64,000 nt of DNA from assembly GCA_964558415.1 (NCBI GenBank), contig CAZLDI010000007.1:75898-139897 (forward strand), written 5' to 3'. This DNA is from an uncultured Dehalococcoidia bacterium. GTDB lineage: Bacteria; Chloroflexota; Dehalococcoidia; SM23-28-2; RBG-16-64-32. Positions within the stretch are counted from its first letter, which is position 1, and the number at the start of each line of letters is the position of its first letter. The translations under genes were made by a program, and so were the position numbers. Below are positions 3,207 to 56,844 of this stretch, piece after piece. The notes under the pieces are model-generated. The model saw only the letters and a list, made by a program, of their open reading frames with translations. It was not told where the DNA came from and did no database searches.

Positions 3207-3227
3207 CGTTGTGCGGGATGGTGCGCT

Positions 3228-4204: not shown

Positions 4205-4272
4205 GGCAAACTGTGAGATTCGTTCGCCCTCCGCCCTGCCTTCCTTCCGCCCCGCTCGGCTCAGAATGACAG
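4205..4272 (+). repeat. REP-like dispersed repeat copy
   Basis: GAGATTCGTTCGCCCTCCGCCCTGCCTTCCTTCCGCCCCGCTCGGCTCAGAATGACAGAGG, nearly identical to the copy at 3228-3292. Confidence 0.7.
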
Positions 4273-7304: not shown

Positions 7305-7323
7305 CGAACGCGGGCTGGCTGAA

Positions 7324-8247
7324 ATGACAGTGAGAGAACCTGCTGCTATCATTCGGCCTACTATGGCTGACCTTTCGTACGATGGGATTGAGGTGGGGAA
7401 GGAGTACGGGCCGTACTATTACCCGCTGAAGGAGCGGATTGGGCGGCACCTGGAGGCGGTGGAGAACGCGCATCCGTGGCACAACGGGCGGTCGCCGTGG
7501 GGGCCGCCGGTGGCGCCGCCGACCATCCTGGGGAACGCGGCGATGCGGTTTCTGGACGACTTCGGGCCGGTGCCGCCGGGGACGCTGCACGCCAAGCAGG
7601 AGATCGAGACGGCGGCGGCGCTGCGGTTGGACCGCAGGCCGATCGGGTACGGTAAGTTCGCCGACAAATACGAGAAGCGGGGCCGGCGGTGGTTTGTGTT
7701 CGAGACGCGCTGGCGGGATGAGACTGGGCTGATCATCGGGAAGAGCCGGATCACGATGGTGTTTCCGAAGGAAGAAGGAAGAAGGAAGGAGGAAGGAGGA
7801 GGGGAGCCGAGAACCGAGAAGCGAGAAGCGGAGCCGGCCCGGAAGAGCGAGTTAGCTGCGATTACGCGCGTTCTGACGCAGGAGAAGATGACGGCGTATA
7901 GCGAGGACTCTGCGAACGCGCTGCGGGGGTCGTCGATTCATGTGCAGCCGGAGGCGGCGAAGGCGGCGGGGTTCGAGCGGACGGTGGCGCAGGGGCTGAT
8001 GGCGGCGGACTATATCGGCGAGCTGATGGAAGAGGCGCTGGGCAGAGAGTGGTACGAGTACGCGGGGCTCTCGGTGACGTTCCTGAAGCCGATCCTCTGC
8101 GGGGACAGGCTGACGGCGAACGGGCGGTTGAAAGAGGAGGCGGAGGAGGGGGCGGTGGTGCGCCGGGTGTATGAGCTGTGGTGCGAGAACCAGCAGGGGG
8201 ACGTGGTGGCGGCGGGGACGGGGAGTTCGCTGGTGATGCCGGGGTAA
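7324..8247 (+). CDS. MaoC-like (R)-specific enoyl-CoA hydratase / hotdog-fold dehydratase with an internal low-complexity linker
   Basis: C-terminal hotdog domain. A K/E/R-rich linker (PKEEGRRKEEGGGEPRTEKREAEPARKSE) is encoded by purine-rich tandem repeats at ~7760-7840. A longer upstream ORF (5893..) is antisense to polA and was rejected. Confidence 0.75.
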   Translation: MTVREPAAIIRPTMADLSYDGIEVGKEYGPYYYPLKERIGRHLEAVENAHPWHNGRSPWGPPVAPPTILGNAAMRFLDDFGPVPPGTLHAKQEIETAAALRLDRRPIGYGKFADKYEKRGRRWFVFETRWRDETGLIIGKSRITMVFPKEEGRRKEEGGGEPRTEKREAEPARKSELAAITRVLTQEKMTAYSEDSANALRGSSIHVQPEAAKAAGFERTVAQGLMAADYIGELMEEALGREWYEYAGLSVTFLKPILCGDRLTANGRLKEEAEEGAVVRRVYELWCENQQGDVVAAGTGSSLVMPG

Positions 8248-12068: not shown

Positions 12069-13316
12069 GTGAGCCAGAGACTGCCCCTGGAAGGCGTCAA
12101 GGTAGCGGACTTCTCCTGGTTCGGCGCGGGGCCGATCTGCGGGCGGCTGCTCGCTGACTACGGGGCCACGGTGGTGCGGATCGAGTCGGAGACGCACCTG
12201 GACTCGCTGCGGATCGTGGCGCCGTTCGCGAAGGGGAAGACGGGGTACAACGTCAGCGGGTACTTCAACAACTACAACGCTGGGAAGCTGGGCATCCTGC
12301 TCAACCTGAACACGGATGAGGGGATACACATCGCGCACAAGTTGATTGAATGGGCGGACGTATTCCTGACCAACATCACACCGCGCACGATTGAGCGCTG
12401 GGGGTTTACGTACGACAAGCTGATAGAGCTCAACCGAGAGATCATCGGCGTTTACGTGCCGATGCAGGGCTTCGATGGCCCACACAGGGACTTCCTGGGG
12501 TTTGGCGCGGTGCTGACGCCGATAACGGGGTATAACCATCTGTCGGGGTTCGCGAACCGTCCGCCGTTCGGACTGGGGACGAACTATCCGGACTACGTGA
12601 TCAACCCGGGGCACACGTTCGTCGCCATCATGGCCGCGCTGCGCTACAGACGGCGGACGGGGAAGGGGCAACGGATCGAGGTGGCGCAGATCGAGTCTTC
12701 GGTGGCACCCCTGGGGCCGGCGGTCTTCGACTACACGGCGAACGGGCGGGTGCAGACGCGCAGCGGGAACGGAATAGCGAACGCCGCGCCGCACAACGCG
12801 TTCAAGTGCAGGCCGCTGACGGACGGCGGCAGGCCGATGGATGAGCGCTGGATCGTCATCGCCTGCTTCAGCGACGACGAATGGAGCGCGTTCGTGCAAG
12901 CCATGGGGAGCCCGGAATGGGCGCGCGACACGAAATTCTCGACCCTTGCCGCAAGGAAGTCGAACGAGGCGGAGATGGACGCGCATATCAACGCCTGGAC
13001 GGCGGACAAGGACGCGTACAAACTGATGGCTGAGCTGCAGGGCCGTGGCGTGCCGGCCGGGGTGGTGCAGAGCGCGCGCGAGATCCTGGACGTGGATGAG
13101 CACATGAAGGCGCGGGGGTATTACGTGTACCTGAAGCATCCGGAGGCGGGCCGTCACGCGCACGACGGGCCGCCGTTTGTGCTCTCGAAGACGCCAGGGC
13201 GGCTGCGGTCGCCGGCACCGTGCCTGGGGGAGCATACGGAGTACGTGTGCAAGGAGATCCTGGGGTTGGACGACGAGGGGATCGCGGAGCTGATGGTGGC
13301 GGGGGCGCTGGCGTAG
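12069..13316 (+). CDS. family III CoA-transferase (second, tandem paralog)
   Basis: VKVADFSWFGAGPICGRLLADYGATVVRIE. GTG start 9 bp after the upstream gene. Confidence 0.85.
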   Translation: MSQRLPLEGVKVADFSWFGAGPICGRLLADYGATVVRIESETHLDSLRIVAPFAKGKTGYNVSGYFNNYNAGKLGILLNLNTDEGIHIAHKLIEWADVFLTNITPRTIERWGFTYDKLIELNREIIGVYVPMQGFDGPHRDFLGFGAVLTPITGYNHLSGFANRPPFGLGTNYPDYVINPGHTFVAIMAALRYRRRTGKGQRIEVAQIESSVAPLGPAVFDYTANGRVQTRSGNGIANAAPHNAFKCRPLTDGGRPMDERWIVIACFSDDEWSAFVQAMGSPEWARDTKFSTLAARKSNEAEMDAHINAWTADKDAYKLMAELQGRGVPAGVVQSAREILDVDEHMKARGYYVYLKHPEAGRHAHDGPPFVLSKTPGRLRSPAPCLGEHTEYVCKEILGLDDEGIAELMVAGALA

Positions 13317-13330
13317 GGGAGATTTCTGCG

Positions 13331-13422
13331 CACGGATAATGTTCACACCCCTCTCCCCCGCCGGATTCCTTCGCGAAGGGACATGAGCCCACGTTCGAGC
13401 CAGGTGGCCGCTCAGAATGACA
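13331..13422 (+). repeat. REP-like dispersed repeat copy
   Basis: GTTCACACCCCTCTCCCCCGCCGGATTCCTTCGCGAAG...GCTCAGAATGACA. Confidence 0.75.
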
Positions 13423-13430
13423 CGATCGGG

Positions 13431-13480
13431 ACGATGAGGGGATCGCGGAGCTGATGGTGGCGGGGGCGCTGGCGTAGGGG
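13431..13480 (+). repeat. direct repeat of the CoA-transferase 3' tail (copy 2 of 3)
   Basis: GACGATGAGGGGATCGCGGAGCTGATGGTGGCGGGGGCGCTGGCGTAGGGG matches 13272-13319 (the native tail, DDEGIAELMVAGALA*) with 1 mismatch. Confidence 0.85.
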
Positions 13481-13515
13481 CACGTGGATGCGGGGGATGC
13501 TGCCAGCGAACGCCG

Positions 13516-13595
13516 TTCACACCCCACACGCCGCCAGATTCCTTCGCGAAGAAGCACCGTGCCACGCCCCGAATGTGGCAGTCGCTCAGAATGAC
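13516..13595 (+). repeat. REP-like dispersed repeat copy
   Basis: TTCACACCCCACACGCCGCCAGATTCCTTCGCGAAG...GTCGCTCAGAATGAC. Confidence 0.75.
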
Positions 13596-13597
13596 TT

Positions 13598-13640
13598 GGG
13601 GATCGCGGAAGTGACGGCGGTGGCGGCGCTGGCGTAGGGA
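13598..13640 (+). repeat. diverged third copy of the CoA-transferase 3' tail
   Basis: GGGATCGCGGAAGTGACGGCGGTGGCGGCGCTGGCGTAGGGA encodes GIAEVTAVAALA*, against GIAELMVAGALA* in the native tail. Confidence 0.6.
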
Positions 13641-15818: not shown

Positions 15819-16229
15819 TCAAGGCTCCATTCGTTTGACGTTCGTGATGCGATCGAAGTCCGCATCGTAGCTGAAGAGCTCCGTCAGGCCCAGCCGCTCC
15901 ATATGCGCGACGGTCAGGGCATCTTCGAAATCGATCCTCGGATGCGAGGCCCAGATGTCCAGCGCCCGCACGCAGGCTCCTTTATGGGCGAGCTTGAGGC
16001 CGCGGAGCGTCAGTAGCGGGCGCAACCGCGCGCCTATGTCCACCGGTGTCAGGCCGTAATGGGCACGGGAACGGAGCACGTAACAGACCTCGGCGATGAT
16101 CACCTCCGACGTCGTCACAACCTCGTGCCCCGCCTTCACTCGCTGAAATAGAGCGAAGCAGGCCTCCGCCTTCCTCTCATCGCCCGCAACCAGATAGCGG
16201 AGGAAGACGTTCGCGTCCAGGAACCTCAC
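15819..16229 (-). CDS. vapC: PIN-domain ribonuclease toxin VapC
   Basis: MRFLDANVFLRYL..., with acidic PIN residues (D5, E, D). Confidence 0.8.
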   Translation of the reverse strand: MRFLDANVFLRYLVAGDERKAEACFALFQRVKAGHEVVTTSEVIIAEVCYVLRSRAHYGLTPVDIGARLRPLLTLRGLKLAHKGACVRALDIWASHPRIDFEDALTVAHMERLGLTELFSYDADFDRITNVKRMEP

Positions 16230-16694: not shown

Positions 16695-18338
16695 ATGGCG
16701 ATGATAGACGGCGGCGACCTAGTGGTGCGCGCGATCAAGCAGGAGGGCGTGGATACGATATTCACGCTGTGCGGCGGGCACGTGCAGGCGATCTACGACG
16801 CGTGCCTGGACGAGAACGTGCGGGTGATCGACACGCGGCACGAGCAGGTGGCGGGGCACGCGGCGGAGGGGTGGAGCCGGGCGACGCGGCGCTGCGGGGT
16901 GGGGGTGGTGACGGCGGGGCCGGGGGTGACGGACTGCACGACGGCGATCGCGAACGCCTGGCACAACAAGAGCCCGATGCTGATCATCGGCGGCCGCAGC
17001 CCGCTGTCTCGCTTCGAGATGGGGTCGCTGCAGGATATGGACCACACGGAGATGCTGAAGCCGATCACGAAGTGGGCGAAGTGCGTACACGAGACGAAGC
17101 GCATCCCGGAGTACATCTCGATGGGGTTCCGGGCGGCGCTGACGGGGCGGATGGGGCCGTCGTTCCTGGAGATCCCGACGGACGTGCTGTTCATGAAGGT
17201 GGAGGAGAACGAGGTGTTCTTCCCGCAGAGCTATCGTCCGGAGGGTCGCGTCTATCCTGACCCGAAGAGCGTGCGCAAGGCGGCGGAGGCGCTGCGGAGC
17301 GCCGAGCGGCCGGTGATCATGGCGGGCTCGGCGATCTACTGGAGCGAGGCGCACGAGGAGCTGCGGGAGCTGGCGGAGCTGATGCAGGCGCCGGTGTACC
17401 TGAACGCGATGGGACGGGGCTCGCTGAACCAGGAGCACGCGCTGTTCTACAGCCGCAGCCGGCGGACGGCGCTGACGAAGGCGGACTGCATCCTGGTGAT
17501 CGGGACGCCGATGGACTTCCGGCTGTCGTACGGGAAGCGATTCAACCCCGAAGCGAAGACGATCCAGGTGGACACCGATCCCGCGGAGCTGGGCCGCAAC
17601 CGCGACATCGACATCCAGCTCGAGGCCGACGCCCGGGCGAGCCTGGAGTCGCTGACGGCGGAGCTTTCCGGGTTCAAGGACGATCACAAGGCGTGGTTGG
17701 GGGAGCTGCGGGAGCAGGAGGACAAGACGCGCGCGCAGATGGAGGAGTGGATGGCGAGCGACCGCGAGCCGATCCACCCGCTGCGGTTGTGCGCGGAGAT
17801 GGCGAACTTCGTGGACGAGAACACGATCGTCGTGGGCGACGGCGGGGACATCGTCAGCCACGCCTCGAAGATACTGCCGGTGAACCAGCCCGGGCAGTGG
17901 TATGACCCGGGCCCGTTCGGGACGCTGGGCGTGGGGACGGGTTTCTGCATGGCGATCAACAGCGTGTACCCGAACAAGCGCATCCTGATGGTCAACGGCG
18001 ACGGGGCTTTCGGGCTGAACGGCTTCGACTTCGACACGTTCGTGCGCTTCAACATCCCGGTGGTGTCCGTGGTGGGGAACGACCGGCAATGGGGACAGAT
18101 CACGGTGGGACAGCGCGCGATGTACGGGAAGGACCGGGTGGTGGCGAGCATGCTGGGGGACGAGTGCCGGTACGACAAGATCGTCGAAGGGATGGGCGGC
18201 CACGGGGAGTACGTCACGAAGCCGGACGAGATCCGGCCGGCGATCGAGCGGGCGTTCGCATCCGGGAAGCCGGCGTGCGTGAACGTAATTATGGACCAGG
18301 AGCCGCCTGGGATCATGGGCGGGTACGAGTTTATGTAG
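16695..18338 (+). CDS. thiamine-pyrophosphate-dependent enzyme (acetolactate synthase / oxalyl-CoA decarboxylase family)
   Basis: 547 aa with PYR, central and PP domains. ThDP motif GDGAFGLNGFDFDTFVRFNIPVVSVVGND. RBS GGAAGGAG upstream. Confidence 0.85.
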   Translation: MAMIDGGDLVVRAIKQEGVDTIFTLCGGHVQAIYDACLDENVRVIDTRHEQVAGHAAEGWSRATRRCGVGVVTAGPGVTDCTTAIANAWHNKSPMLIIGGRSPLSRFEMGSLQDMDHTEMLKPITKWAKCVHETKRIPEYISMGFRAALTGRMGPSFLEIPTDVLFMKVEENEVFFPQSYRPEGRVYPDPKSVRKAAEALRSAERPVIMAGSAIYWSEAHEELRELAELMQAPVYLNAMGRGSLNQEHALFYSRSRRTALTKADCILVIGTPMDFRLSYGKRFNPEAKTIQVDTDPAELGRNRDIDIQLEADARASLESLTAELSGFKDDHKAWLGELREQEDKTRAQMEEWMASDREPIHPLRLCAEMANFVDENTIVVGDGGDIVSHASKILPVNQPGQWYDPGPFGTLGVGTGFCMAINSVYPNKRILMVNGDGAFGLNGFDFDTFVRFNIPVVSVVGNDRQWGQITVGQRAMYGKDRVVASMLGDECRYDKIVEGMGGHGEYVTKPDEIRPAIERAFASGKPACVNVIMDQEPPGIMGGYEFM

Positions 18339-18461
18339 GGAGCAGCGATGCGCGCTATCAGCTGATGAGCTCACACTCCGCCGCCCGGGATGATCCACGG
18401 AATTGGCACAGATGTACACGGAGAATGAGCCGCTCGGCTACCCGCAGATGAGAGTAGATGG

Positions 18462-19367
18462 ATGCCACGCATAGACTACGGCGGCGGGCTGACTATCGAC
18501 GCGCCGGAGGGGATGACCGTCCTTGAGACGTCGATCCAGCATGGGCTGGAGCACAGGGCCGCCTGCGGCGGACAGGAGCGCTGCACCACCTGTCGAATCG
18601 AAATACTTGACGGTACTGAGAACTGCCCGCCGAGCACGGCCGGCGAGCGCGAGGTCCTGGAGCTCGGAGGCTTTGGGGAAGACATCCGGCTCGGCTGCTC
18701 TCTCAGGCCATCGGGCGATATCAAGATCCGGCTTCTCGTCCGCGAGAGGATCGGTAAAGAAGACCTGCGACCGGAGGGGATGGCGCGAGAACGGGAGGTG
18801 GCCGTTTTGTTCGCGGATATCCGCAACTTCACCGCCTTCTCAGAGAATCACCTCGCTTTCGACGTCCTGCATCTTCTCAACCGCTACTTCGACCGTATGG
18901 GCACTATCATCGACTTCAATCGCGGCGAAGTGATTGCCTTCCTGGGAGACGGAATCGTCGCCTTCTTCGAGGGCGGCGACCCGACGCGAGCGGCAGTCGC
19001 CGCCACGCGGTGCGCCACCCAGATGCTCAAGGGCGCGCAGGCATTCTCGCGCTACTCAACTGAGCACTTCGGTTTCGATGTGCGGACCGGCATTGGCATC
19101 GCCTTCGGCCCGGCGGTGATCGGCGAGGTCGGGTACTACCGCAACACCCGTCCGAACTGTATCGGCGACGTGGTGAACACCGCGTCGCGCGTACAGGACG
19201 CAACGAAGGAACACGGCGCGTCTCTCCTGGTGACGGACGCCATCCGCAAGCTAGCCGAAGGCAAGTTCGAGTTCGGGCGCGAGTTTACCTGCGAGCTGCG
19301 CGGCAAGGAGGGAGAGCATCAGTTGTACGAAGTGCTGCGGGAGAAGCGAAGTCGCGCTCGTGCTTGA
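18462..19367 (+). CDS. 2Fe-2S ferredoxin domain fused to a class III adenylate/guanylate cyclase catalytic domain
   Basis: N-terminal ~95 aa carry Cys C-x5-C-x2-C...C (ACGGQERCTTC...LGCS). The C-terminal cyclase homology domain has metal-binding Asp residues (VLFADIRNFT, LGDGIVAFF) and transition-state residues (NTASRV). Confidence 0.85.
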   Translation: MPRIDYGGGLTIDAPEGMTVLETSIQHGLEHRAACGGQERCTTCRIEILDGTENCPPSTAGEREVLELGGFGEDIRLGCSLRPSGDIKIRLLVRERIGKEDLRPEGMAREREVAVLFADIRNFTAFSENHLAFDVLHLLNRYFDRMGTIIDFNRGEVIAFLGDGIVAFFEGGDPTRAAVAATRCATQMLKGAQAFSRYSTEHFGFDVRTGIGIAFGPAVIGEVGYYRNTRPNCIGDVVNTASRVQDATKEHGASLLVTDAIRKLAEGKFEFGREFTCELRGKEGEHQLYEVLREKRSRARA

Positions 19368-19490
19368 CGCTGCGTTGTGACACGGGTCACAGGCAAAAGG
19401 CGGGAGGAGGTCTATCATGCGAGCGGGCCGCGCGGTGGCAAGGAGAACTTCGCCGCTCCCGACGCAGGGAGGGAAGGGCCAGGTGACAAG

Positions 19491-21230
19491 ATGAGACTCA
19501 TGGAAGCTGAACGGAAGGCAAGCGTCGACGTCTGCCCCCTCGAAGAGCTTCAGCGCGAGCGCGTGAAGGTCGTCTCGGCGGAGGGGCGCGTAATCGCGGT
19601 GTTCTACGAGGAAGGGAAGCTCTACGCGCTGGACAACCGCTGCCCGCACATGGGCTTCCCGTTGAATCGCGGGACTGTGAAGGACGGCATCCTGACCTGC
19701 CACTGGCACCACGCGAAGTTCGATCTCGCCGGGGGCTGCACGTTCGACCCTTTCGCGGACGACGTGACGCGCTTCCATGTGGAGGAGCGCGAGCGCACGG
19801 TCTGGCTCGATCCGAGGCCGATCGAGGAGGACCGGCGCGTACACTGGCTGGGCAAACTCGACGAGGGGCTGGAACAGAACCTGCGATTAGTGCTGGCGAA
19901 GAGCGTGATCGGCCTCGAGGGGCTCGACGCGACGCGAGATATTCTGACCAAGGCGGCGCTCTTCGGGATACGCAACCGGGTGTCGGGCTGGAGCAGCGGC
20001 CTCTCGATTATGACGGGGATGGCAAACGTGCTGCCGTCGCTCGACGAAGCCGACCGGCCTCTGGCGCTGTACCAGGGACTCGTGCACGTCGCCCGGACGA
20101 CCGAGGGGCAGCCTCCGAGCTTCGATCTCGAAGCACTTAACACAGATGAGAAGCGGCCGGCGCGCTATCTCGACTGGTTCCGGCGCTTCATCGAGGTGCG
20201 GGCGGAGGACGCGGCGGAGCGGACGCTGCGCACGGCGATCCGCATCGGGCTGCCAGAGCGGGCGGTGGCAGACATGGTTTTCGCTGCCTGTACCGACCAC
20301 CTCTTCCTGAACGAGGGGCACTCACTGGACTTCGCGAACAAGGCGTTCGAGCTGCTGGACCACATCGGCTGGGAGCACGCAGAGGAGGTGCTGGTCTCGC
20401 TCATCCCCGACTTCATCCAGGCGACGCGAATGGAAGAGACGTCGCCCTGGCGGCACCCAGTCAACTTACCGGAGCTACTGGGCGAGGTCTACCAGCAGCT
20501 CGATGCGGCGATCGATGAGGGCGGCGGGAAGCTGAACGGATGGGCTGAACACCAAGCGCTGGCGGAGCAGATACTGGACGGCGAGCCGAAGGAGACGCTC
20601 GCTGCGATGCTAGACGCTGTGCGGCAGGGTGCGCCGCTGACGGAGCTTTCGGCGACAGTGGCGTACGCGGCGGTGCGGCGACCGGTGCACTTCCGCGTGA
20701 CGAACGAGTTCGCCGACTGGGACACGATCCACCACACGTTCACGTACGCCAACGGCGTCGACCAGGCGGTGCGGCGGGCGCCGTCAAAGCTGCTGGCGCG
20801 CGGCATCTTCGACGGGGCAATGTCGGTTTACCTGGAGCGATTCCTCAACGTCCCCAAGCAGCCTATACCGACGCCCTCGGGTGGCACGGCCAGTCGTGGG
20901 GAAATATTGGCCTCATTCGACGAGCAAGGGAAGGTGGATGAGGCGGCGCAGCAGGTGGCGGACGCGATCGCCGCGGGGAATCAGAGCGAAATAATTGGGA
21001 CACTGGGCCACGCGTTGCTGCGGGAGGACGCGCACTTCCACCAGTTCCAGATCTACGAAGCGGGACTCCGCCAGTACGGCAACTTCGGTAATACACCGCT
21101 GGGTGACCACGTTCTCATCGGGACGACGCGCTTTCTGGCGGCGCGCTCACCGACGGTGCGGGCGACACCGCAGACGTACGACATCGCGGCGCGGCTGCAT
21201 CGGGGAGAGTCCCTGCACGGGGAGGATTAA
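19491..21230 (+). CDS. Rieske [2Fe-2S] domain protein with a large uncharacterised C-terminal helical domain
   Basis: Rieske boxes CPHMG...CHWHH near the N-terminus. RBS AGGGAGGGAAGG upstream of the ATG at 19491. The ~440-aa C-terminal region has no recognised motifs. Confidence 0.75.
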   Translation: MRLMEAERKASVDVCPLEELQRERVKVVSAEGRVIAVFYEEGKLYALDNRCPHMGFPLNRGTVKDGILTCHWHHAKFDLAGGCTFDPFADDVTRFHVEERERTVWLDPRPIEEDRRVHWLGKLDEGLEQNLRLVLAKSVIGLEGLDATRDILTKAALFGIRNRVSGWSSGLSIMTGMANVLPSLDEADRPLALYQGLVHVARTTEGQPPSFDLEALNTDEKRPARYLDWFRRFIEVRAEDAAERTLRTAIRIGLPERAVADMVFAACTDHLFLNEGHSLDFANKAFELLDHIGWEHAEEVLVSLIPDFIQATRMEETSPWRHPVNLPELLGEVYQQLDAAIDEGGGKLNGWAEHQALAEQILDGEPKETLAAMLDAVRQGAPLTELSATVAYAAVRRPVHFRVTNEFADWDTIHHTFTYANGVDQAVRRAPSKLLARGIFDGAMSVYLERFLNVPKQPIPTPSGGTASRGEILASFDEQGKVDEAAQQVADAIAAGNQSEIIGTLGHALLREDAHFHQFQIYEAGLRQYGNFGNTPLGDHVLIGTTRFLAARSPTVRATPQTYDIAARLHRGESLHGED

Positions 21231-21277
21231 GGAGGCTAGTTGGTCCAAGAACTGCTTCGGGTTCACGCGCCCGCGGA

Positions 21278-21371
21278 CGGGCGTTCGCGTCAAGGAAGCC
21301 TCCGTTCGTGAACGTGATTATGGACCAGGAGCCGCCTGGGATCATGGGCGAGTACGAGTTTATGTAGGGAG
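21278..21371 (+). repeat. diverged direct repeat of the 3' tail of the TPP-enzyme gene (copy 2), 2.95 kb downstream of the native tail
   Basis: The core GTGAACGTGATTATGGACCAGGAGCCGCCTGGGATCATGGGCGAGTACGAGTTTATGTAGGGAG (21308-21371) matches 18279-18342 with 2 mismatches, and weaker similarity extends ~30 bp further upstream. In frame it encodes ...RAFASRKPPFVNVIMDQEPPGIMGEYEFM*, against ...RAFASGKPACVNVIMDQEPPGIMGGYEFM* in the native gene. Confidence 0.85.
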
Positions 21372-21401
21372 AGGCGGTGCCCCGCGGCGGAGAGTAGTCT
21401 C

Positions 21402-21434
21402 CCGCTCATCCTACGAGTGCCTCAGGATGAGCGG
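21402..21434. terminator. hairpin following the displaced TPP tail copy (probable original terminator of the TPP gene)
   Basis: CCGCTCATCCT-acgagtgcctc-AGGATGAGCGG. Confidence 0.4.
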
Positions 21435-21546
21435 TGGTAGCCTCTCTGACCGCCGCCTGAGGTGACGCCTTTCGCTTGCGCGCCTCAGGACCCACCTGTA
21501 ATCTTCTCAACATCGGTTCGACGAGCTATCCATCTGGAGGTACGCT

Positions 21547-22707: not shown

Positions 22708-23121
22708 TCAGGCAGCCGGCTCCACGCGGGTGATGCCTGGCAGGCGGTCGAAGTCCGTGTCCCAGGTGTAGATTTCCGAGAGGCGCTGGGAACGCATGAA
22801 GGCGGCGTTGTACGCGTCCGCAAACGACAGACGGGTTGTCGCGTAGACATCCAGCGCTTCGTAGTAAGTTTGCTTATCGGCGATTCGGACGTTCGGTAGC
22901 GCAAGGACGTACTGCAGGTCGTCCCGGATCTTTGCTCTGGGGACCACGTAGCTCTTCTCGAGGATGAAGACTGTCTCAAAGATGACCATCGGTGAGACGG
23001 TCACCTGTTCTTCCCCAGCTTCCACGCGCAGAAGCAGCGCCACCACCCGCGACGCCTTCTCTTCATCGTCACGGGTGAGAAGGCGGACGAGGATGTTGGT
23101 ATCAAGGAAGCGGTGCGCCAT
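22708..23121 (-). CDS. vapC: PIN-domain toxin VapC (second pair)
   Basis: MAHRFLDTNILVRLL... The start ATG at 23121 was chosen over the longer ORF-caller extension. Confidence 0.8.
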   Translation of the reverse strand: MAHRFLDTNILVRLLTRDDEEKASRVVALLLRVEAGEEQVTVSPMVIFETVFILEKSYVVPRAKIRDDLQYVLALPNVRIADKQTYYEALDVYATTRLSFADAYNAAFMRSQRLSEIYTWDTDFDRLPGITRVEPAA

Positions 23122-23125
23122 GATC

Positions 23126-23383
23126 CTACCGCTCAGTCTCGGACAGTACTTCCTCGGCCACTCCCCGTTCGAACTCTTCGCGCAATTGTCGGAAGTCTTC
23201 GGGCCTGCTGCGCGGTGAGACTGAGCCGTACATCGCAAGAATCCCCGACGCCTTCCTCAGCCTCGCGGTCTCCCCGTCGATCTCGAAGGCGATCTTATCT
23301 CGCGGCTTGAGGCCCAGCCGCAAGCGGATCTCCTTGGGTATAGTCACTTGGCCTTTCACTGTTAATGTCGTTTGTTTCAGCAT
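23126..23383 (-). CDS. vapB: AbrB/SpoVT-type antitoxin VapB (second pair; paralog of 16226-16486)
   Basis: MLKQTTLTVKGQVTIPKEIRLRLGLKPRDKIAF. 4 bp upstream of vapC. Confidence 0.75.
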   Translation of the reverse strand: MLKQTTLTVKGQVTIPKEIRLRLGLKPRDKIAFEIDGETARLRKASGILAMYGSVSPRSRPEDFRQLREEFERGVAEEVLSETER

Positions 23384-23500: not shown

Positions 23501-23579
23501 TCCACCACGCCGCCAACCCCAGATTCCTTCGCGGCGAGAGTAATCGCAGGTTGCGAGCGTTGGGGCGCTCAGAATGACA
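23501..23579 (+). repeat. REP-like dispersed repeat copy
   Basis: CCACCACGCCGCCAACCCCAGATTCCTTCGCGGCGAG...GGCGCTCAGAATGACA. Confidence 0.75.
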
Positions 23580-31595: not shown

Positions 31596-31677
31596 TGACC
31601 CACCGCGCCTCCGCCACCCGGATTCCTTCGCGGCAAGCGGGGTCGGCGCGTTCCACTGGATGGGCGCTCAGAATGAC
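31596..31677 (+). repeat. REP-like dispersed repeat copy
   Basis: ACCCACCGCGCCTCCGCCACCCGGATTCCTTCGCGGCAAG...GGGCGCTCAGAATGAC. Confidence 0.75.
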
Positions 31678-45827: not shown

Positions 45828-45910
45828 CTGACCCACGACCCCACGCCGCCCAGATTATTCGCGAAGATACGGCTCGCCGCGATCGGGGCGTGTCGCCGCT
45901 CAGAATGACA
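45828..45910 (+). repeat. REP-like dispersed repeat copy
   Basis: GACCCACGACCCCACGCCGCCCAGATTATTCGCGAAG...CGCCGCTCAGAATGACA. Confidence 0.7.
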
Positions 45911-51080: not shown

Positions 51081-51114
51081 CCGGACGGATTCTTCGCTGC
51101 GCTCAAGAATGACA
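51081..51114 (+). repeat. short REP-like copy immediately 5' of the mdh RBS
   Basis: CCGGACGGATTCTTCGCTGCGCTCAAGAATGACA. Confidence 0.5.
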
Positions 51115-51133
51115 GCAGAATGAGGAGGAATGA

Positions 51134-52066
51134 TTGCGAGCTAAAGTAACGGTAGTGGGCGCCGGGATGACCGGCGGGACGATGGCACAGAGGCTGGCGG
51201 AGACGGGGCATGTGGACGTGGTGCTGCAGGACATCATCGAGGGGTTGCCGCAGGGTAAGGCGCTTGACCTCGCCGAGGAGGCGGCGCACGCCGGGTTTAC
51301 GGCGAAGGTCACCGGCTCGAACGATTGGGCGGACACCAGAGGGTCGGACGTGGTAGTGATCACTTCGGGTGTGCCGCGCAAGCCGGGGATGACGCGGGAG
51401 GAGCTGCTGAACATCAACGCCGGGATCGTCGGCGGTGTCGCGAGGAGCGCGGCGAAGGCCTCGCCGAAGGCAGTGTTCATCATCTTCGCGAACCCTATGG
51501 ACGTGATGTGCCACGTCGCACTGGAAGCGAGCGGCTTTCCGGCAAACCGTGTGATCGGGCAGGGGGGGATGCTGGACAGCGCACGCTACCGGACGTTTAT
51601 CGCCTGGGCGGCGAAGGCGTCGGTGCAGGACGTGCACGCGCAGGTGCTGGGCGGACACACGGAAGCGACGATGGTGCCGATCGTGAGCACGGCGCACGTG
51701 GGCGGCGTGCCGCTGACGAAGCTGCTTTCGAAGAAGAAGATCGAGGGGGTGGTGCAGCGAGCGAAGAACGGCGGGGCGGAGATCGTCTCGTTGCTGAAGA
51801 CCGGGTCGGCGTTCTACGCGCCGGCGGCGGCGACGGTGGAGATGGTGGAGGCGGTGCTGCTGGACAAGAAGCGCATCCTCCCTTGCGCCACGCTGGCGGA
51901 CGGGCAGTACGGGATCCAGGGCGCGTATGTGGGGCTGCCGGTGAAGGTGGGGGCGAAGGGGATAGAAGCGGTGTACGAGCCGCCGCTGTGGGACAGCGAG
52001 ATCGCGGGGATCCGCGGGGCGGCGGAGTCGACGCGGGAGCTGGTGGGGCTGATCGAGAAGAAGTAG
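51134..52066 (+). CDS. mdh: malate dehydrogenase (LDH-like MDH)
   Basis: TTG start 6 nt after GAGGAGG. GVPRKPGMTREEL with Arg at the specificity position. Catalytic His in GGHTE. Confidence 0.9.
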   Translation: MRAKVTVVGAGMTGGTMAQRLAETGHVDVVLQDIIEGLPQGKALDLAEEAAHAGFTAKVTGSNDWADTRGSDVVVITSGVPRKPGMTREELLNINAGIVGGVARSAAKASPKAVFIIFANPMDVMCHVALEASGFPANRVIGQGGMLDSARYRTFIAWAAKASVQDVHAQVLGGHTEATMVPIVSTAHVGGVPLTKLLSKKKIEGVVQRAKNGGAEIVSLLKTGSAFYAPAAATVEMVEAVLLDKKRILPCATLADGQYGIQGAYVGLPVKVGAKGIEAVYEPPLWDSEIAGIRGAAESTRELVGLIEKK

Positions 52067-52092: not shown

Positions 52093-52875
52093 ATGCCTGA
52101 ATACGTGTTCGACAACGCCAGCGAACAGACTCCGACCCGGTTCTCCGCGCTCGAAGGGCTATTCGACGCCGGGACGTTCCGCCACATCGACTCGCTAGGG
52201 ATCGCGCCGGGATCGCGCTGCCTTGAGGTGGGAGGCGGCTCGGGGTCCGTGGCCAGGGGGCTGAGCGCGCGCGTCGGGGACCGCGGCCAGGTGGTGGTTA
52301 CCGACATCGACACCAGACACCTCACGGGAATGGATGAGCCAAACATCGAGGTCCGGCAACACGACATCGTTGCTGACGACCTGGAAGAGGACCACTATGA
52401 CGCGGCACACACGAGGCTGGTGTTGCTGCACATTCCAGAACGCGAGAGGGCCATCGAGCGGATCGTGAGGTCCCTGCGGCCGGGTGGATGGCTGCTTTTC
52501 GAAGAGTTCGACTCGCTGTCGATGCCGCCCGATCCAGAACTGAATCCCTCGGAGCACTTTCTGAAGACTCTAGGCGCTCTCTGGAAAGTGATGGCATCCG
52601 AGGGTGTGAACCTGCGCTTCGGCAGGCTCTTGCCAGGAATCCTGGAGAAGATGGGGTTGCGAGACGTCGGCGCCGAGGCGACGGCGTTCTTGTTCAAGGG
52701 AGCCTCGACCGGCGCTGCGGTGCTGCGCGCAAACTTCTTGCAGATGCGCGACAAGTTGATAGCCTCCGGATACATCACCGAAGGCGAATTCGAGGCCGAC
52801 CTTGCAAGGCTGGATGACCCCGGCGTGGAGTGGCCGTCCTGGGTGTTGTGGTCGGTCTGGGGCCGACGGTCATAG
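52093..52875 (+). CDS. class I SAM-dependent methyltransferase
   Basis: Motif I LEVGGGSG. RBS AGGAGG. Its stop codon is followed in frame by an mdh-tail copy. Confidence 0.8.
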   Translation: MPEYVFDNASEQTPTRFSALEGLFDAGTFRHIDSLGIAPGSRCLEVGGGSGSVARGLSARVGDRGQVVVTDIDTRHLTGMDEPNIEVRQHDIVADDLEEDHYDAAHTRLVLLHIPERERAIERIVRSLRPGGWLLFEEFDSLSMPPDPELNPSEHFLKTLGALWKVMASEGVNLRFGRLLPGILEKMGLRDVGAEATAFLFKGASTGAAVLRANFLQMRDKLIASGYITEGEFEADLARLDDPGVEWPSWVLWSVWGRRS

Positions 52876-52923
52876 GCGGCGGCGTCCACGCGGGAGCTGG
52901 TGGGGCTGATCGAGAAGAAGTAG
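52876..52923 (+). repeat. direct repeat of the mdh 3' tail (copy 2 of 3)
   Basis: GGCGGCGGCGTCCACGCGGGAGCTGGTGGGGCTGATCGAGAAGAAGTAG matches 52019-52066 with 2 mismatches. The last 39 nt are identical. Confidence 0.9.
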
Positions 52924-53050
52924 CGCTGGGGAGGCAGGCCGGGCGGGCGGCGCAGCGTGCTGCGCCCTCATTCTCACTACCCACCCATCCTTCGATACCC
53001 CGCCACAGAGGGGTGCAGGCTCTCAGCGTGAGCACAACGCGACCTCGCAC

Positions 53051-53067
53051 TGTAGAATAGCCGCATC
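53051..53067 (+). promoter_or_regulatory. extended -10 (TGTAGAAT) promoter giving a leaderless mRNA for the hydrolase-cyclase gene
   Basis: TGTAGAATAGCCGCATC-ATG. A 45-bp block spanning the promoter and the first 8 codons is near-identical at 54518-54560. Confidence 0.45.
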
Positions 53068-54393
53068 ATGGAACCTCAGGTCCGGTACGTCACAAGCTCA
53101 GACGGCACGAGGATCGCCACGTGGAGGCTCGGTAAGGGCACGCCGCTCATACTGGTACGTCCGATCTGGTCGCTCCCGACTGCGCTGCACTGGCTGAGTC
53201 CATCAGACCGAGGCCATCTGGAGCGGCTTGCGGGCAAGCGGACTGTCATCATGTACGACAACCGCGGACAGGGCCTCTCCGACCGCGAGGCGGGTGATCT
53301 CTCGCTTGAGGCGAGGACGGCCGATCTCGCTGCTGTGGTACAAAGCCTGGGAGTTCGTCCCTTCGATCTCATGGCAATGGCCAACTCAGCGCCGGTCGCG
53401 ATAGCGTACGCGGCCGACAATCCCGACAGGGTCCGCTGCCTCGTACTCAGCAGCGCCGCTGCGCGCGGCCGGGACATCAGGCTGTCACCACAGCGGCACG
53501 CTATTGCCCGGTTAGCGGAGGTTGACTGGGCGCTTTTCAACCGTGTTGGGGCGCTCATCTCATACGGCTTCACAGAGTTCGCTGAGTTGGTGGCGGAAAC
53601 GGGCGCAGCCAGCATCACGCCCGAAACATTCCTCCGGGCCACAAAAGCCGCCTGGCAGTTCGATGCAACCGGCGGTGTCTCTAAGGTGGCCTGTCCAACG
53701 CTGGTCCTCCATCAAGAGCGAGGCGAGGTCCCAATTGAAGTGTCGAGGCAGCTCGCCGCTTCGCTCCCGGACGGACGTCTGGTCGTCTATGATCAGCCAT
53801 TCTCATCCACGCTCGGGACGACTGAGACAGTCGACAACATCGAGGCGTTCCTGGACGAGGGCGACCCCGGCGCGGCGGCTCCCGCCGAAGCTCTCCCCTC
53901 GGGCACCGCCATCATCCTGTTCACGGACATCGCAGACTCCACGGCGCTAACGGAGAAGATGGGTGACGCGGCGTTCCGCGAGACGGCACACGACCTCGAC
54001 GAACGCATGCGGTCAGCCATCCGCGAGGCGGGCGGCAAGCCCGTCGAGGGCAAGGTGCTCGGCGACGGGGTCATGGCGCTGTTCACGTCGGCAGCGCAGG
54101 CGATAGAGGCGGCGGTTCGCTGCCGAGACGCTGGTAGTCACAGCGAGATGCCGATACACGTCGGGGTACACGCTGGCGATGTGATCAGGGATGGGAACAC
54201 AGTTTACGGGGGCGCCGTCAACGTGGCGTCTCGCGTGTGCGGTCTCTCAGCCACAGGCGAAGTGCTGGTCTCCGAGACTGTGCGTTCGCTGGCGCGCACC
54301 TCCGCTGGCGTGCGGTTCGAGGACCGCGGTGAGCACGAGCTGAAGGGGGTGGGGGAGGCGGTACGGGTGTGGGCGGTGGTGCAGAACCAGTGA
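53068..54393 (+). CDS. alpha/beta-hydrolase domain fused to a class III adenylate/guanylate cyclase (LipJ/Rv1900c-like)
   Basis: N-terminal alpha/beta-hydrolase fold, ~270 aa. C-terminal cyclase homology domain with metal-binding Asp residues (ILFTDIADST, LGDGVMALF) and NVASRV. Confidence 0.85.
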   Translation: MEPQVRYVTSSDGTRIATWRLGKGTPLILVRPIWSLPTALHWLSPSDRGHLERLAGKRTVIMYDNRGQGLSDREAGDLSLEARTADLAAVVQSLGVRPFDLMAMANSAPVAIAYAADNPDRVRCLVLSSAAARGRDIRLSPQRHAIARLAEVDWALFNRVGALISYGFTEFAELVAETGAASITPETFLRATKAAWQFDATGGVSKVACPTLVLHQERGEVPIEVSRQLAASLPDGRLVVYDQPFSSTLGTTETVDNIEAFLDEGDPGAAAPAEALPSGTAIILFTDIADSTALTEKMGDAAFRETAHDLDERMRSAIREAGGKPVEGKVLGDGVMALFTSAAQAIEAAVRCRDAGSHSEMPIHVGVHAGDVIRDGNTVYGGAVNVASRVCGLSATGEVLVSETVRSLARTSAGVRFEDRGEHELKGVGEAVRVWAVVQNQ

Positions 54394-54462
54394 TAGACCC
54401 ACAGATTAGGTACGATCGGAGCGCCGATGGGGATGAGGTCGCGGAAATCTTGAAGGCGAATC

Positions 54463-54499
54463 CACGCGGGAGCTGGTGGGGCTGATCGAGAAGAAGTAG
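54463..54499 (+). repeat. direct repeat of the mdh 3' tail (copy 3 of 3)
   Basis: TCCACGCGGGAGCTGGTGGGGCTGATCGAGAAGAAGTAG is identical to the last 39 nt of mdh. Confidence 0.9.
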
Positions 54500-54517
54500 G
54501 CGGTCGCGCTGCCACGC

Positions 54518-54534
54518 TGTAGAATAGCCGCAAC
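54518..54534 (+). promoter_or_regulatory. extended -10 (TGTAGAAT) leaderless promoter, paralogous copy
   Basis: Identical to 53051-53067. Confidence 0.45.
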
Positions 54535-55869
54535 ATGGAACCTCAGGTCCGGTACGTCACCAGTGCCGACGGGACGAAGATTGCCACGTGGCGGATCGGT
54601 AAGGGCACGCCCCTCATTCTCATCGGTTCCATTTGGGCAACGCCGGCTGAGCTTCAGTGGATGGTCGCACGGGACCGGACCCATCTTGAGCGGCTCGCGA
54701 ATAACCGCATGGTCGTCCTGTACGACCAGCGCGGACAGGGCCTATCCGACCGCGATGTGGACGACTTTTCTCTCGCCGCCAGGGTGAGCGATCTGGCGGC
54801 CGTCTTACAAAGTCTGCAGGCACCATCGGTCGATGTCGTGGCGGCGACCAATTCCGCCCCGGTAGCCATCACCTACGCCGCTGACCACCCGGAACGAGTC
54901 CGTCGACTCATCCTCACCAGCGCTGCCGCCCGCAATCGCGACATCCGACTCACACCCCAGCGTCACGCCATCGCGAGACTGGCTGAGGTCGACTGGTTGT
55001 TGTTCAACCAGGTCCACGCGTTGATTACTCACGGGTTCACAGAGTTCTCCGGACTGATCGCCGAGACTTCGGCGGCGAGCATCACCCCGGAGAAATTCGC
55101 AGCCGCGATGAGCGCTGCCTGGCAGTTCGACGCGACCGATAATCTCTCCCGGGTGACGTGTCCAACACTGGTGCTGCACCTGTGGAGTGAAGCTCCGATC
55201 GAGCTCTCGAAGCAGCTTGCAGCCACTATCCCGGACGCCCAACTGGTGGTCTTCCAGCAGCCGTACGGCACAACCCTTGGCCTACTGGAGACGATCGAAA
55301 ACATAGAGGCGTTCCTGGACGAGGATGATGTCCCGGCAACGCAGAGCGTCGAGACCACCCTCCCCTCCGGCATGACGGCGATCCTGTTCGCCGACATCGT
55401 CGACTCCACGGCGCTCACCGAACGCCTCGGTGATGCCGCCTTCCGCGAGAAGGCGCGTGAGCTCGGGGCCTCGTTGCGGGGGCTGATCCGTGAGTGCGCA
55501 GGAATACCGGTCGAGGGGCCGACGCTAGGGGACGGCGTGCTGGCGGCCTTCACGTCGGCGCGAGAGGCAATCGAGGCGGCGCAGCGCTGCGGCAAGGCGG
55601 GCGGTAACGCCGGTTTGCCCCTGCACCTCGGCATCCACGCCGGCGATGTGACGCGTGAGAAGGATCCGGACGGGCGCGACAACGTCTACGGGGGCGCCGT
55701 CAACATCGCCTCGCGGATCAGCGCGCTGTCGGCGGCGGGGGAGGTGCTGGTGTCGGATGTCGTCCGAACGTTGGCGCGCACATCGGCGGGGGTGCGGTTC
55801 GAGGACCGCGGCGAGCAGACGCTTAAGGGCGTGGGGGAGGCGGTGCGGGTGTGGGCGGTAAGTGACTGA
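54535..55869 (+). CDS. alpha/beta-hydrolase domain fused to a class III adenylate/guanylate cyclase (second LipJ-like paralog)
   Basis: By eye ~65% identical to 53068-54393. The first 8 codons and the last 13 residues are identical. Confidence 0.85.
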   Translation: MEPQVRYVTSADGTKIATWRIGKGTPLILIGSIWATPAELQWMVARDRTHLERLANNRMVVLYDQRGQGLSDRDVDDFSLAARVSDLAAVLQSLQAPSVDVVAATNSAPVAITYAADHPERVRRLILTSAAARNRDIRLTPQRHAIARLAEVDWLLFNQVHALITHGFTEFSGLIAETSAASITPEKFAAAMSAAWQFDATDNLSRVTCPTLVLHLWSEAPIELSKQLAATIPDAQLVVFQQPYGTTLGLLETIENIEAFLDEDDVPATQSVETTLPSGMTAILFADIVDSTALTERLGDAAFREKARELGASLRGLIRECAGIPVEGPTLGDGVLAAFTSAREAIEAAQRCGKAGGNAGLPLHLGIHAGDVTREKDPDGRDNVYGGAVNIASRISALSAAGEVLVSDVVRTLARTSAGVRFEDRGEQTLKGVGEAVRVWAVSD

Positions 55870-55875
55870 GGTGAC

Positions 55876-56844
55876 GTGAGCAAGCACCGGCACAAGGTGT
55901 TCGCAGCGATGCGGGTGGCGGCACCCCATTTGGAGGCGCTTTCAGTGACGTGCGACGTCACGTGCTTCGAAGGTGCGGGGAGAATGACGGCGGCAGAGCT
56001 CGTTTCCTCCGCGGCGGGCGTCGATGGTTTGCTGTCACCTGCGAACCAGCCGATCCCGACCGAGCTGCTGCGAACGGCGGCGCGGCTGCGGGTGATCAGC
56101 AACTTCGGCGTGGGGTACGACAACGTGGACCTAGCGGTTGCTGCCGAGTGCGGCATCCTGGTGACGAACACGCCGGGGGTGCTGAGCGCCGCCGTCGCTG
56201 AGCTGACGCTGGGGCTCATGATCTCGCTCGCGCGGGGACTGCGCCAGGCTGAGCAGGTTGTGCGGGAGGGGCGCTGGGGAGCGCCCGGCGCGCTGCCGCT
56301 GGGCACAGACTTGAGGGGCAAGGCCCTCGGCATCGCCGGCTACGGGCGGATCGGGCGGGAGGTTGCCGGCCGGGCGGGCGCGTTCGGGATGCACGTGATC
56401 TTCTTCGATGCGCGGCCGGGGACCAGTGCCGCCGCTGGCCACCGGAGTGTCGACTCGCTGGCACAGTTGCTCGCGGAGGCGGATTTCGTGACGCTGCACA
56501 CGGACCTGAATGCGGGGTCGCGGCACCTGATCGGCGCGGACGAGTTAGGCTTGATGAAGCACACGGCTTATCTGATCAACACCTCTCGTGGAGCGATCGT
56601 TGACCAGGGGGCGCTCTACGAGGCGCTGAAGGGCGGCCGGATCGCGGGTGCGGCGCTCGACGTGCTGGAGCGCGAGCCGCCTGATCCGGCTGATCCGCTA
56701 CTTCAGCTCCCGAACGTGGTGGTGTTGCCGCATATCGGCTCGGCTACCGTCGAGACGAGGCGGGCGATGATGGAGCTGGCGATCGAGAACCTGCTGGCCT
56801 GCCTGGAGGGAAGGCCGTGCGAGAATATCGTCGCCGGAGGTTAG
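55876..56844 (+). CDS. D-isomer-specific 2-hydroxyacid dehydrogenase (glyoxylate/hydroxypyruvate reductase-like)
   Basis: GIAGYGRIGREVA NAD motif. Catalytic R...E...H. Confidence 0.85.
   Translation: MSKHRHKVFAAMRVAAPHLEALSVTCDVTCFEGAGRMTAAELVSSAAGVDGLLSPANQPIPTELLRTAARLRVISNFGVGYDNVDLAVAAECGILVTNTPGVLSAAVAELTLGLMISLARGLRQAEQVVREGRWGAPGALPLGTDLRGKALGIAGYGRIGREVAGRAGAFGMHVIFFDARPGTSAAAGHRSVDSLAQLLAEADFVTLHTDLNAGSRHLIGADELGLMKHTAYLINTSRGAIVDQGALYEALKGGRIAGAALDVLEREPPDPADPLLQLPNVVVLPHIGSATVETRRAMMELAIENLLACLEGRPCENIVAGG

Follow-up and report, generated by a model that had tools for sequence, protein, structure and literature searches.

Two adjacent genes in a 64,000-nucleotide (nt) stretch of contig CAZLDI010000007.1 (hereafter the window), which derives from an uncultured Dehalococcoidia bacterium of the phylum Chloroflexota, encode related class III cyclases and begin with an almost identical 44-nt block that, judging from its comparison with the closest orthologs, was most likely produced by short-tract gene conversion between them. 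The two genes, designated here cycA and cycB, would be old tandem paralogs of a Chloroflexota family in which a pseudo-hydrolase domain is joined to a class III cyclase domain. We hold with reasonable confidence the combined account in which such paralogs each possess their own -10 element close to the ATG, have had their 5' block converted, and carry a pseudo-hydrolase at the N-terminus. Coordinates are collected in Table 1; relatives are referred to by locus numbers (L001 and so on).

An earlier reading of the bare sequence (the original prediction) had placed the identity of the two proteins at about 65% and had drawn attention to a near-identical block at the 5' ends of both genes. Both statements were confirmed: the proteins are 66% identical over 443 aligned residues (68% identity at the nucleotide level), and the block is identical at 43 of 44 positions. 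The pattern CTGTAGAATAGCCGCANCATGGAACCTCAGGTCCGGTACGTCAC occurs exactly twice in the window, the sole difference between the copies falling at the N (T/A), and yielded 0 matches in 100 shuffles of the sequence. Within the shared block lie the hexamer TAGAAT, the 9 nt that separate it from the ATG, and the first 26 coding bases. In a pairwise alignment of the genes and their flanks it constitutes the longest identical run (16 + 27 nt including the upstream part), followed by runs of 16-20 nt. No relationship exists between the two loci just before the block, where cycA has a spacer of 126 nt and cycB one of 17 nt, and each spacer is preceded by a repeat of the final 36-49 nt of the malate dehydrogenase gene mdh. 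A recent duplication of the whole tail-spacer-promoter segment was rejected, since the two spacers are unrelated.

The argument for gene conversion is one of phylogenetic incongruence, because the block appears to have a younger common ancestor than the genes that contain it. The incongruence was assessed in a quartet comprising cycA, cycB and their two closest orthologs, L003 and L085, whose mdh products are 91-92% identical in amino acid (aa) sequence to that of the window. Between positions -18 and +26, all seven informative sites group cycA with cycB and L003 with L085, whereas across the remaining 1.3 kb this pattern is the rarest one, found at 23 of 96 sites (24%), which gives p = 0.24^7 ≈ 5e-5 for the block. 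The two orthologs match the window block at 34-35 of 44 positions, and their 9-10 differences include a TAGACT hexamer, a different spacer and 2-4 synonymous sites in the first 8 codons. The N-terminal domain of cycA is no closer to that of cycB (67% aa identity) than to that of L003 (72.5%). When 104 family genes were compared in register, the block identity of cycA and cycB was the highest among 50 within-locus pairs, the between-locus mean being 24.5/44. Perfect tracts of 95-314 nt were also found in tandem pairs that are 62-66% identical overall (L055, L032, L063, L057, L024), and conversion thus appears to be common in the cyclase family. The proposal that the 5' ends were homogenised by gene conversion is therefore supported by both the quartet sites and the divergence of the orthologs. 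According to this account, non-reciprocal homologous recombination after the divergence of cycA and cycB would have generated the 44-nt island of identity, and a second island would be formed by the last 36-39 nt of the truncated mdh copies (pseudo-tails) preceding both genes. Identity would persist only where uninterrupted homology suffices and homogenisation is harmless, as in a shared promoter and N-terminus or in a non-functional pseudo-tail, while the gene bodies would evolve apart.

The original prediction had described the hexamer as an extended -10 element with the ATG 9 nt further on, and had deduced leaderless mRNAs. The hexamer and the 9-nt gap stand, and the spacer, AGCCGCA(T/A)C, contains no Shine-Dalgarno (SD) sequence; the TG, however, abuts TAGAAT directly in both genes (TGTAGAAT), without the intervening base of the canonical TGnTAnnnT spacing. 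A sigma-70 -35/-10 scan of 51-57.5 kb detected no -35 element, and a simple scan of the same interval found no terminator between cycA and cycB. A TANNNT hexamer about 12 nt before the start is a signature of leaderless genes (PMC3160421), and both genes lack an SD sequence and have their -10 element 9 nt from the start codon, inside the expected range of about 6-10 nt. Among the 79 family genes that are not translationally coupled, TANNNT hexamers begin at -15 in 20 genes and at -12/-13 in 17, no other position being used by more than 3. The same layout recurs in other genes of the window, including fumA (TGcTATGAT + 9 nt), polA (TGcTATAAT + 6 nt), CoA-transferase 1 (TATAAT + 8 nt; CoA, coenzyme A) and orf34648 (TGcTAGAAT + 8 nt). 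A leaderless or near-leaderless start of cycA and cycB is plausible on these grounds, and the first transcribed base may lie 2-3 nt ahead of the AUG and not on it. Of the deduction of leaderless mRNAs, then, the hexamer before the ATG and the missing SD sequence are sustained, and recur in the comparison across the family, but a start exactly on the AUG is no more likely than one 2-3 nt before it, given the 9-nt gap. A sigma-A-type -10 element of its own would thus drive each gene, yielding an mRNA devoid of an SD leader, with no nucleotides, or at most about 3, ahead of the AUG. The leaderless, TA-led genes of Actinobacteria and Deinococcus-Thermus (Zheng et al. 2011, PMC3160421) likewise present a TANNNT hexamer near the ATG and no SD sequence, but at about -12, as opposed to the modal -15 (9-nt gap) of the cyclase family.

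The second island of identity belongs to a locus that was compared across 80 relatives (L086-L165), in which the order icd-mdh-(0-3 kb)-fumA is conserved. The slot between mdh and fumA may be empty, or contain a methyltransferase gene (L092, L105, L127), an F420H2-quinone-reductase-like gene or cyclases (L003, L085, L101, L084 and the window); a cyclic-nucleotide (cNMP)-binding protein and about 1 kb of unknown content were also observed there. In L003 and L085 a single cyclase directly follows mdh, and a cyclase next to mdh is the ancestral synteny for the closest relatives of the window. The sequence after the most distal mdh repeat of the window, pseudo-tail 3 (TAG GCGG...), matches the L003 arrangement, which identifies cycB as the syntenic copy. 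The tail of mdh is present three times (52018-52066, 52875-52923, 54451-54499). It gave 0 hits in a metagenome collection in which this organism is not represented. An S-adenosylmethionine (SAM)-methyltransferase gene and cycA are placed between the real tail and the pseudo-tails, and cycB has a tail copy on its upstream side only. The claim that all three cyclases of the window lie inside tail-bracketed insertions therefore applies to cycA and to the third cyclase, which lies elsewhere in the window, but not to cycB. Pseudo-tails 2 and 3 both carry TCC where every real mdh has TCG. Pseudo-tail 3 matches the real tail perfectly over its last 36 nt and over the 2 nt past the stop codon, and its distal part shows indels amounting to a net change of -4 nt, a frameshift and an in-frame stop. 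An in-frame diverged allele was rejected as its origin in view of the net 4-nt loss and the in-frame stop.

The cyclase domain of cycB is 81-83% identical in aa sequence to those of L003 and L084_2, and that of cycA has 75% identity with its counterpart in L084_1; the N-terminal domains of cycA, cycB, L003, L084_1 and L085 form a single type (57-72%), from which that of L084_2 is very different (36%). This mosaic of domains indicates repeated recombination between tandem paralogs at the mdh locus. Recombination at conserved segments, by which tandem paralogs are both diversified and homogenised, has been described for the lpl cluster of Staphylococcus aureus (Tsuru & Kobayashi 2008, PMC2568036), but there the conserved island lies in the central region of the genes, whereas in cycA and cycB one island comprises the promoter and first codons, and the unit repeated here includes a fragment of an unrelated upstream gene, mdh. 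In L127, the mdh of which is 88% identical in nucleotide sequence, a cupin gene is located between the real tail and a pseudo-tail (L127 690-1260), and beyond this pseudo-tail come the junction and the methyltransferase seen in the window. The two copies of the methyltransferase gene (window 52093-52875, L127 1283-1586) share 96% DNA identity, as against 82-84% for the adjacent mdh 3' end (last 200 nt), so that the methyltransferase cassette would have moved between lineages with its boundary at the tail; the comparison points to a recent lateral exchange of a single-gene segment. Two further mechanisms were discarded. Homology-facilitated illegitimate recombination co-importing the mdh 3' end with the methyltransferase is unsupported by these two levels of identity, and a TAG-specific targeting was rejected because TAG is the commonest stop codon of the window (26/50).

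Tail-bracketed insertions are not restricted to mdh. The window contains three such loci and five pseudo-tails, behind mdh, a CoA-transferase gene and a thiamine pyrophosphate (TPP)-enzyme gene, with repeats made up of the last 34-100 nt of the core gene. The pseudo-tail nearest its core gene is the best preserved, and the boundary between identical and decayed sequence within pseudo-tails is sharp. In the TPP-enzyme pseudo-tail the skewed distribution of mismatches is significant (Fisher p = 0.008), and this pseudo-tail and the real tail have window-specific substitutions in common. The syntenic 164-kb contig L166, with a TPP enzyme that is 92% identical, contains neither the units behind the CoA-transferase gene nor the insertion behind the TPP-enzyme gene: its glyoxalase gene follows the TPP-enzyme gene after 13 nt, while in the window the glyoxalase gene follows the pseudo-tail. 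Except for L127, no orphan tails were found in 0.82 + 0.58 Mb of related loci, and a Pfam scan of 35 open reading frames (ORFs) of the window, which is part of the genome, identified no integrase, transposase or recombinase domains. The repeats of the three core genes are unrelated in sequence and unequal in length, without a single attachment (att) core. These features lead us to favour, as the putative mode of recombination at tails, a Campbell-type or ends-out integration of DNA consisting of cassette plus tail, followed by conversion; a staggered-cut target duplication or a site-specific integrase fit the insertions less well. A template/variable repeat of the kind found in diversity-generating retroelements was rejected for the TPP-enzyme tail, because the copies enclose no reverse transcriptase and their mismatches show no adenine-specific pattern.

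The same observations allow a more ambitious reading, in which the identity islands serve as functional components of a cassette system that needs no recombinase and is specific to this Chloroflexota lineage. Genes would be flanked by copies of a portable tail, formed by the terminal 35-100 nt of some conserved core gene; such genes would be excised, exchanged among relatives and re-inserted purely by homologous recombination at the tail, and would build up integron-like arrays with the newest cassette nearest the mdh, CoA-transferase and TPP-enzyme genes. It is favoured by the contrast between the window, which has five pseudo-tails at three loci, together with L127, and about 1.4 Mb of related loci in which there are none, by the empty sites of L166, by the different cargo found behind the same tail (a cupin gene in L127, the methyltransferase and cycA in the window), by the jump in identity from 82-84% to 96% exactly at the tail, and by the sharp identical-to-decayed boundary in the pseudo-tails. 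We nonetheless consider it unlikely that such a system accounts for the islands. Among known elements, arrays of integrative and conjugative elements and cis-mobilizable elements (ICE/CIME) resemble the window in that units are inserted serially behind a gene and set apart from one another by direct repeats of its 3' end, in having the newest unit nearest the gene and, according to the CIME concept, in including some units without recombinase genes. They differ from it in that the window has no integrase or transposase in the scanned ORFs and uses three target genes with unrelated 34-100-nt repeats, in that its cargo may be as small as about 110 nt, and in that its repeats switch sharply from identical to decayed. 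The ssrA islands of Dehalococcoides are an example of tRNA/tmRNA islands accreting at the 3' end of a gene. Integron cassettes and IS26 translocatable units (IS, insertion sequence) share with the window the head-to-tail single-gene cassettes with a repeat and the insertion beside a fixed site, but no IntI, attC or IS is present in the window, where the repeat is the end of a host gene.

Several points weigh against the conversion account and the start it assumes. The block is short, and the run of silent sites in its coding part alone (7 codons) would lack significance. If L003 and L085 are sisters, their version of the promoter could be one derived change, which weakens the non-coding sites of the quartet. 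L039, L050 and L065 are 42-44/44 identical in their own 5' block, with proteins only 50-63% identical, so that selection (or exchange) at the nucleotide level does occur at 5' ends in this family, and may contribute to the island of cycA and cycB. The 9-nt gap also exceeds the usual 6-7 nt, and a 2-3-nt leader is as likely as a truly leaderless start. In leaderless mRNAs the first codons double as a ribosome-binding signal, and from this premise it can be argued that no conversion took place and that an ancestral block was kept by purifying selection on the promoter and the mRNA 5' end. The family-wide conservation of the -10 position and of the N-terminus MEPQ(V/I)RY is in keeping with this explanation, as are the blocks of the three metagenome-assembled genomes (MAGs) just cited. 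Selection of the required strength, however, does not appear to be acting in this lineage, because the blocks of L003 and L085 differ from that of the window in the spacer and at synonymous sites as well; the excess of sites uniting cycA and cycB over the gene body also speaks against it, and neither the spacer AGCCGCA nor the rare CCT codon has a family-wide counterpart. We regard purifying selection without conversion as distinctly improbable.

The original prediction had left open, as an alternative to gene conversion, that the promoter formed part of a mobile unit, and a promoter module inserted independently before cycA and before cycB would indeed explain identical 5' ends. A family of small dispersed repeats ends in GCTCAGAATGACAG, which resembles CACTGTAGAATAGCC, and is also found before mdh, both in the window and in relatives; the cycA spacer of 126 nt is weakly similar to the 5' half of this repeat. 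Even so, TGTAGAATAGCCGCA has just two copies in the 64 kb when up to 3 mismatches are allowed, the block extends 26 nt in frame into the coding sequence, and the two blocks are preceded by unrelated sequences. Moreover, L003 and L085 keep the -10 element at the same distance from the ATG, for which reason the promoter appears to be an old part of the cyclase gene, ancestral to it and not a separate mobile unit. An independent insertion of this kind has, in our judgement, a very slim chance of being correct. The idea that metagenome strain mixtures were collapsed or chained during assembly, creating identical stretches and repeated tails, draws on the metagenomic source and on the related organism with the same locus (L003) in the same sample, but its probability is close to negligible, since two further assemblies agree with the window (L001, a Joint Genome Institute (JGI) contig with 6 single-nucleotide polymorphisms in 16 kb and 0 in 52-56 kb, and L002, a Logan contig from SRR6155509 that equals window 52894-54490 exactly and terminates inside two repeated mdh tails, as happens at real repeats), the junctions have only 1-8 nt in common with mdh, too little for a k-mer chimera, the decayed and frameshifted extension of pseudo-tail 3 could not be supplied by any functional mdh, and a structure of this kind recurs in L127, which comes from another sample. 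The arrangement of cycA and cycB with repeated tails is not an assembly accident.

Pfam assigns Abhydrolase_1/_6 and Hydrolase_4 (about 40-240) followed by Guanylate_cyc (280-437) to both proteins, which had been called LipJ-like. The label is appropriate for the architecture, a hydrolase domain followed by a cyclase domain, but the LipJ equivalog model of NCBIfam, NF058673, is missed by a wide margin (158.1 bits for cycA and 141.6 bits for cycB, with a curated cutoff of 800), and the score comes mostly from the C-terminal half; cycA and cycB are thus, on these scores, LipJ-like in architecture without being LipJ. An AlphaFold (AF2) model was built on 66 homologs and reached a predicted local distance difference test (pLDDT) score of 91. 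Among solved cyclase domains those of Ma1120 and Rv1900c are the closest (35-38% identity), and the modelled cyclase domain superposes on them with a template modelling (TM) score of about 0.9 and a root-mean-square deviation of 1.6 Å; the modelled N-terminal domain matched esterases and haloperoxidases (TM about 0.77), and Foldseek gave hits to both folds. Rv1900c/LipJ of Mycobacterium tuberculosis (1YBT, 1YBU) and Ma1120 of M. avium (4WP3) have the same succession of an N-terminal hydrolase fold and a C-terminal cyclase; cycA and cycB differ from them in lacking the nucleophile Ser and in belonging to a Chloroflexota family whose members are numerous in each genome and form tandem arrays.

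The elbow of the hydrolase domain reads A103-M104-A105-N106-S107-A108-P109 in cycA and A-A-T-N-S-A-P in cycB. The nucleophiles of 3r0v (GMSSG) and 7clz (GHDIG) align to A105 and T105, respectively, and S107 of cycA aligns with the second small residue of GxSxG; in the AF2 model, strand 99-104 passes directly into helix 105-117. Column 105 of the 66-sequence family alignment is occupied by A16/G12/L8/I7/T6/V5, with no conserved Ser. No His is present in residues 240-256 of either protein, and no catalytic His is conserved after the last strand across the 66 sequences, these columns being highly variable. With Ala or Thr at the nucleophile position and no conserved His in the family, the N-terminal domain is very probably non-catalytic, and most likely constitutes a sensory or regulatory module for the cyclase, which bears out the suspicion, based on a non-canonical elbow, that it may regulate and not catalyse. 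The metal-binding Asp residues D287 and D333, as well as N385 and R389, are invariant or nearly so in the family and are present in both proteins. The substrate Lys (329) is found in 61 of 66 family sequences; cycA keeps K329 and has T378 where 64/66 sequences have Asn, and P329 occurs together with N378 in cycB and in its ortholog L003. The deviations of the two substrate sites are complementary, cycA having the Lys without the Asn and cycB the Asn without the Lys. Because class III cyclases form head-to-tail dimers, a cycA/cycB heterodimer with one intact active site is conceivable.

More than 3,400 homologs of about 440 aa were found. In one-genome-per-species data 328 family loci were identified, and the 80 kept for analysis come from Chloroflexota/Dehalococcoidia-type MAGs, except for two labelled Binatia. 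Each MAG contains many copies, very often in tandem runs of 2-4. Arrays typically open with a gene that lacks an SD sequence and has a -10-like hexamer immediately ahead of its ATG (L012, ctgtagaataacgccagcATG; L021, L061, L024, L074), and later genes are translationally coupled (GGAGG...gTGATG). We found no literature on the expansion of cyclase paralogs in Dehalococcoidia. Other repeated upstream modules were also seen. L039 (5880-6030), L050 (812-962) and L065 (5880-6030), from MAGs of three different species, share a near-identical region of ~75 nt (~45 nt upstream and the first 30 coding nt) that comprises a hairpin, CCTCGGCC(G/T)CCCGAGG, then TGTACCCT, a spacer and the first 10 codons, and that may be a conserved or exchanged 5' regulatory module. 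Before cyclase paralogs of L034 (370-420, 1790-1840) and L024 (about 7310-7350), a shared GC-rich hairpin, CCCTTCCCTCAnAGGGAAGGGG, followed by CCGGGGG replaces the -10-like element.

Table 1. Features of the window and of the cycA and cycB proteins (window positions in nt, unless residues are indicated).
Feature	Position	Strand	Remarks
Dispersed repeats	3232-3285, 4217-4270, 13364-13421, 13537-13595, 23522-23578, 31621-31677, 45858-45909	+	
CoA-transferase gene	12069-13316		
CoA-transferase tail region	13268-13640		tail-bracketed insertions
CoA-transferase pseudo-tails	13429-13480 (98%), 13589-13640 (79%)	+	each preceded by small repeat
TPP-enzyme gene	16695-18338		real tail 18249-18351; then 2.9-kb insertion, then pseudo-tail
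Insertion behind TPP-enzyme gene	18352-21277	+	third cyclase (Fer2 + cyclase, 18462-19367), Rieske protein (19377-21230)
TPP-enzyme pseudo-tail	21278-21380	+	7 mismatches in first 39 nt, 1 in next 55
Dispersed repeat variant	about 51100-51120		upstream of mdh
mdh (malate dehydrogenase)	51134-52066	+	last 49 nt (52018-52066) = real tail, repeated downstream
SAM-methyltransferase gene	52093-52875	+	260 aa; SD AGGAGG; cassette between real tail and pseudo-tail 2
Pseudo-tail 2	52875-52923	+	47/49 identical to mdh tail; begins exactly at natural methyltransferase stop codon
Spacer before cycA block	52924-53049	+	126 nt; weakly resembles small dispersed repeat family (5' half)
5' block of cycA	53050-53093	+	CTG, TAGAAT (53053-53058), 9-nt spacer, ATG + 23 coding nt
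cycA	53068-54393	+	ORF A, 441 aa
Pseudo-tail 3	54435-54501	+	distal about 30 nt decayed; proximal 54464-54501 (38 nt) identical to mdh tail + GC
5' block of cycB	54517-54560	+	like cycA block; TAGAAT at 54520-54525, 9 nt to ATG
cycB	54535-55869	+	ORF B, 444 aa
D-2-hydroxyacid dehydrogenase gene	55876-56844	+	GTG start 6 nt past cycB stop; GAGGTGA before GTG
cycA protein, domains	residues about 1-265; about 280-437		pseudo-alpha/beta-hydrolase (A105 at nucleophile position); class III cyclase
cycA protein, cyclase residues	D287, K329, D333, T378, N385, R389		
cycB protein			same architecture as cycA; T105 at nucleophile position; P329 replaces substrate-binding Lys; N378 kept

The D-2-hydroxyacid dehydrogenase gene behind cycB is probably co-transcribed with it. 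Members of the dispersed repeat family, about 60-90 nt long, consist of (CACCCC...)AGATTCCTTCGCG, 35-45 variable nt and GCCGCTCAGAATGACAG, and occur also in L106, L107, L136, L138, L139 and L166. The repeat lies 25-35 nt upstream of the mdh start in the window and its relatives, followed by an SD sequence, and so may be a promoter or regulatory module; elsewhere, copies directly adjoin the stop codons of convergent genes. A structured RNA was rejected for the small repeats, with fold z-scores of -0.3 to +1.2, none better than shuffles, and Rfam (gathering threshold) and tRNA scans of the window, dispersed repeats included in the case of Rfam, returned nothing. About 20 tandem copies of a G-rich 8-nt unit (GGGGCAAG / GGGTCATA) occupy positions 3057-3222, between a copy of the small repeat and the start of the opposite-strand fpg gene. 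A segment of about 175 nt between the TPP-enzyme pseudo-tail and the glyoxalase start (21369-21546) is absent from L166 and is possibly a further small insertion; it contains an inverted repeat, CGCTCATCC...GGATGAGCG, with the flanks GGAGAGG / GGAGGT in the SD region of the glyoxalase gene. Two PIN-domain (toxin-type) genes on the minus strand (15819-16229, 22708-23238) are situated near insertion loci, in regions unlike L166.

Taken individually, the processes invoked here, concerted evolution in an array of tandem paralogs and promoters of the leaderless type, are known ones for which the window provides a new example, and the tail-bracketed arrays are the unusual element. The case of concerted evolution confined to the promoter and first codons is of modest value in itself; it is clean and statistically supported, and comes from an uncultured phylum in which, to our knowledge, promoters and leaderless translation are almost unstudied. 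A large Chloroflexota family also emerges from the analysis, in which cyclases are joined to a dead hydrolase domain and are typically organised in recombining tandem arrays; the predictions that follow are a leaderless start, a sensory pseudo-enzyme domain and possible cycA/cycB heterodimers with one intact active site. The tail-bracketed insertions are a more novel lead than the promoter block: if the tail-separated accumulation of genes behind mdh and two further core genes is systematic, it would represent a simple, homology-based route of gene capture and exchange.

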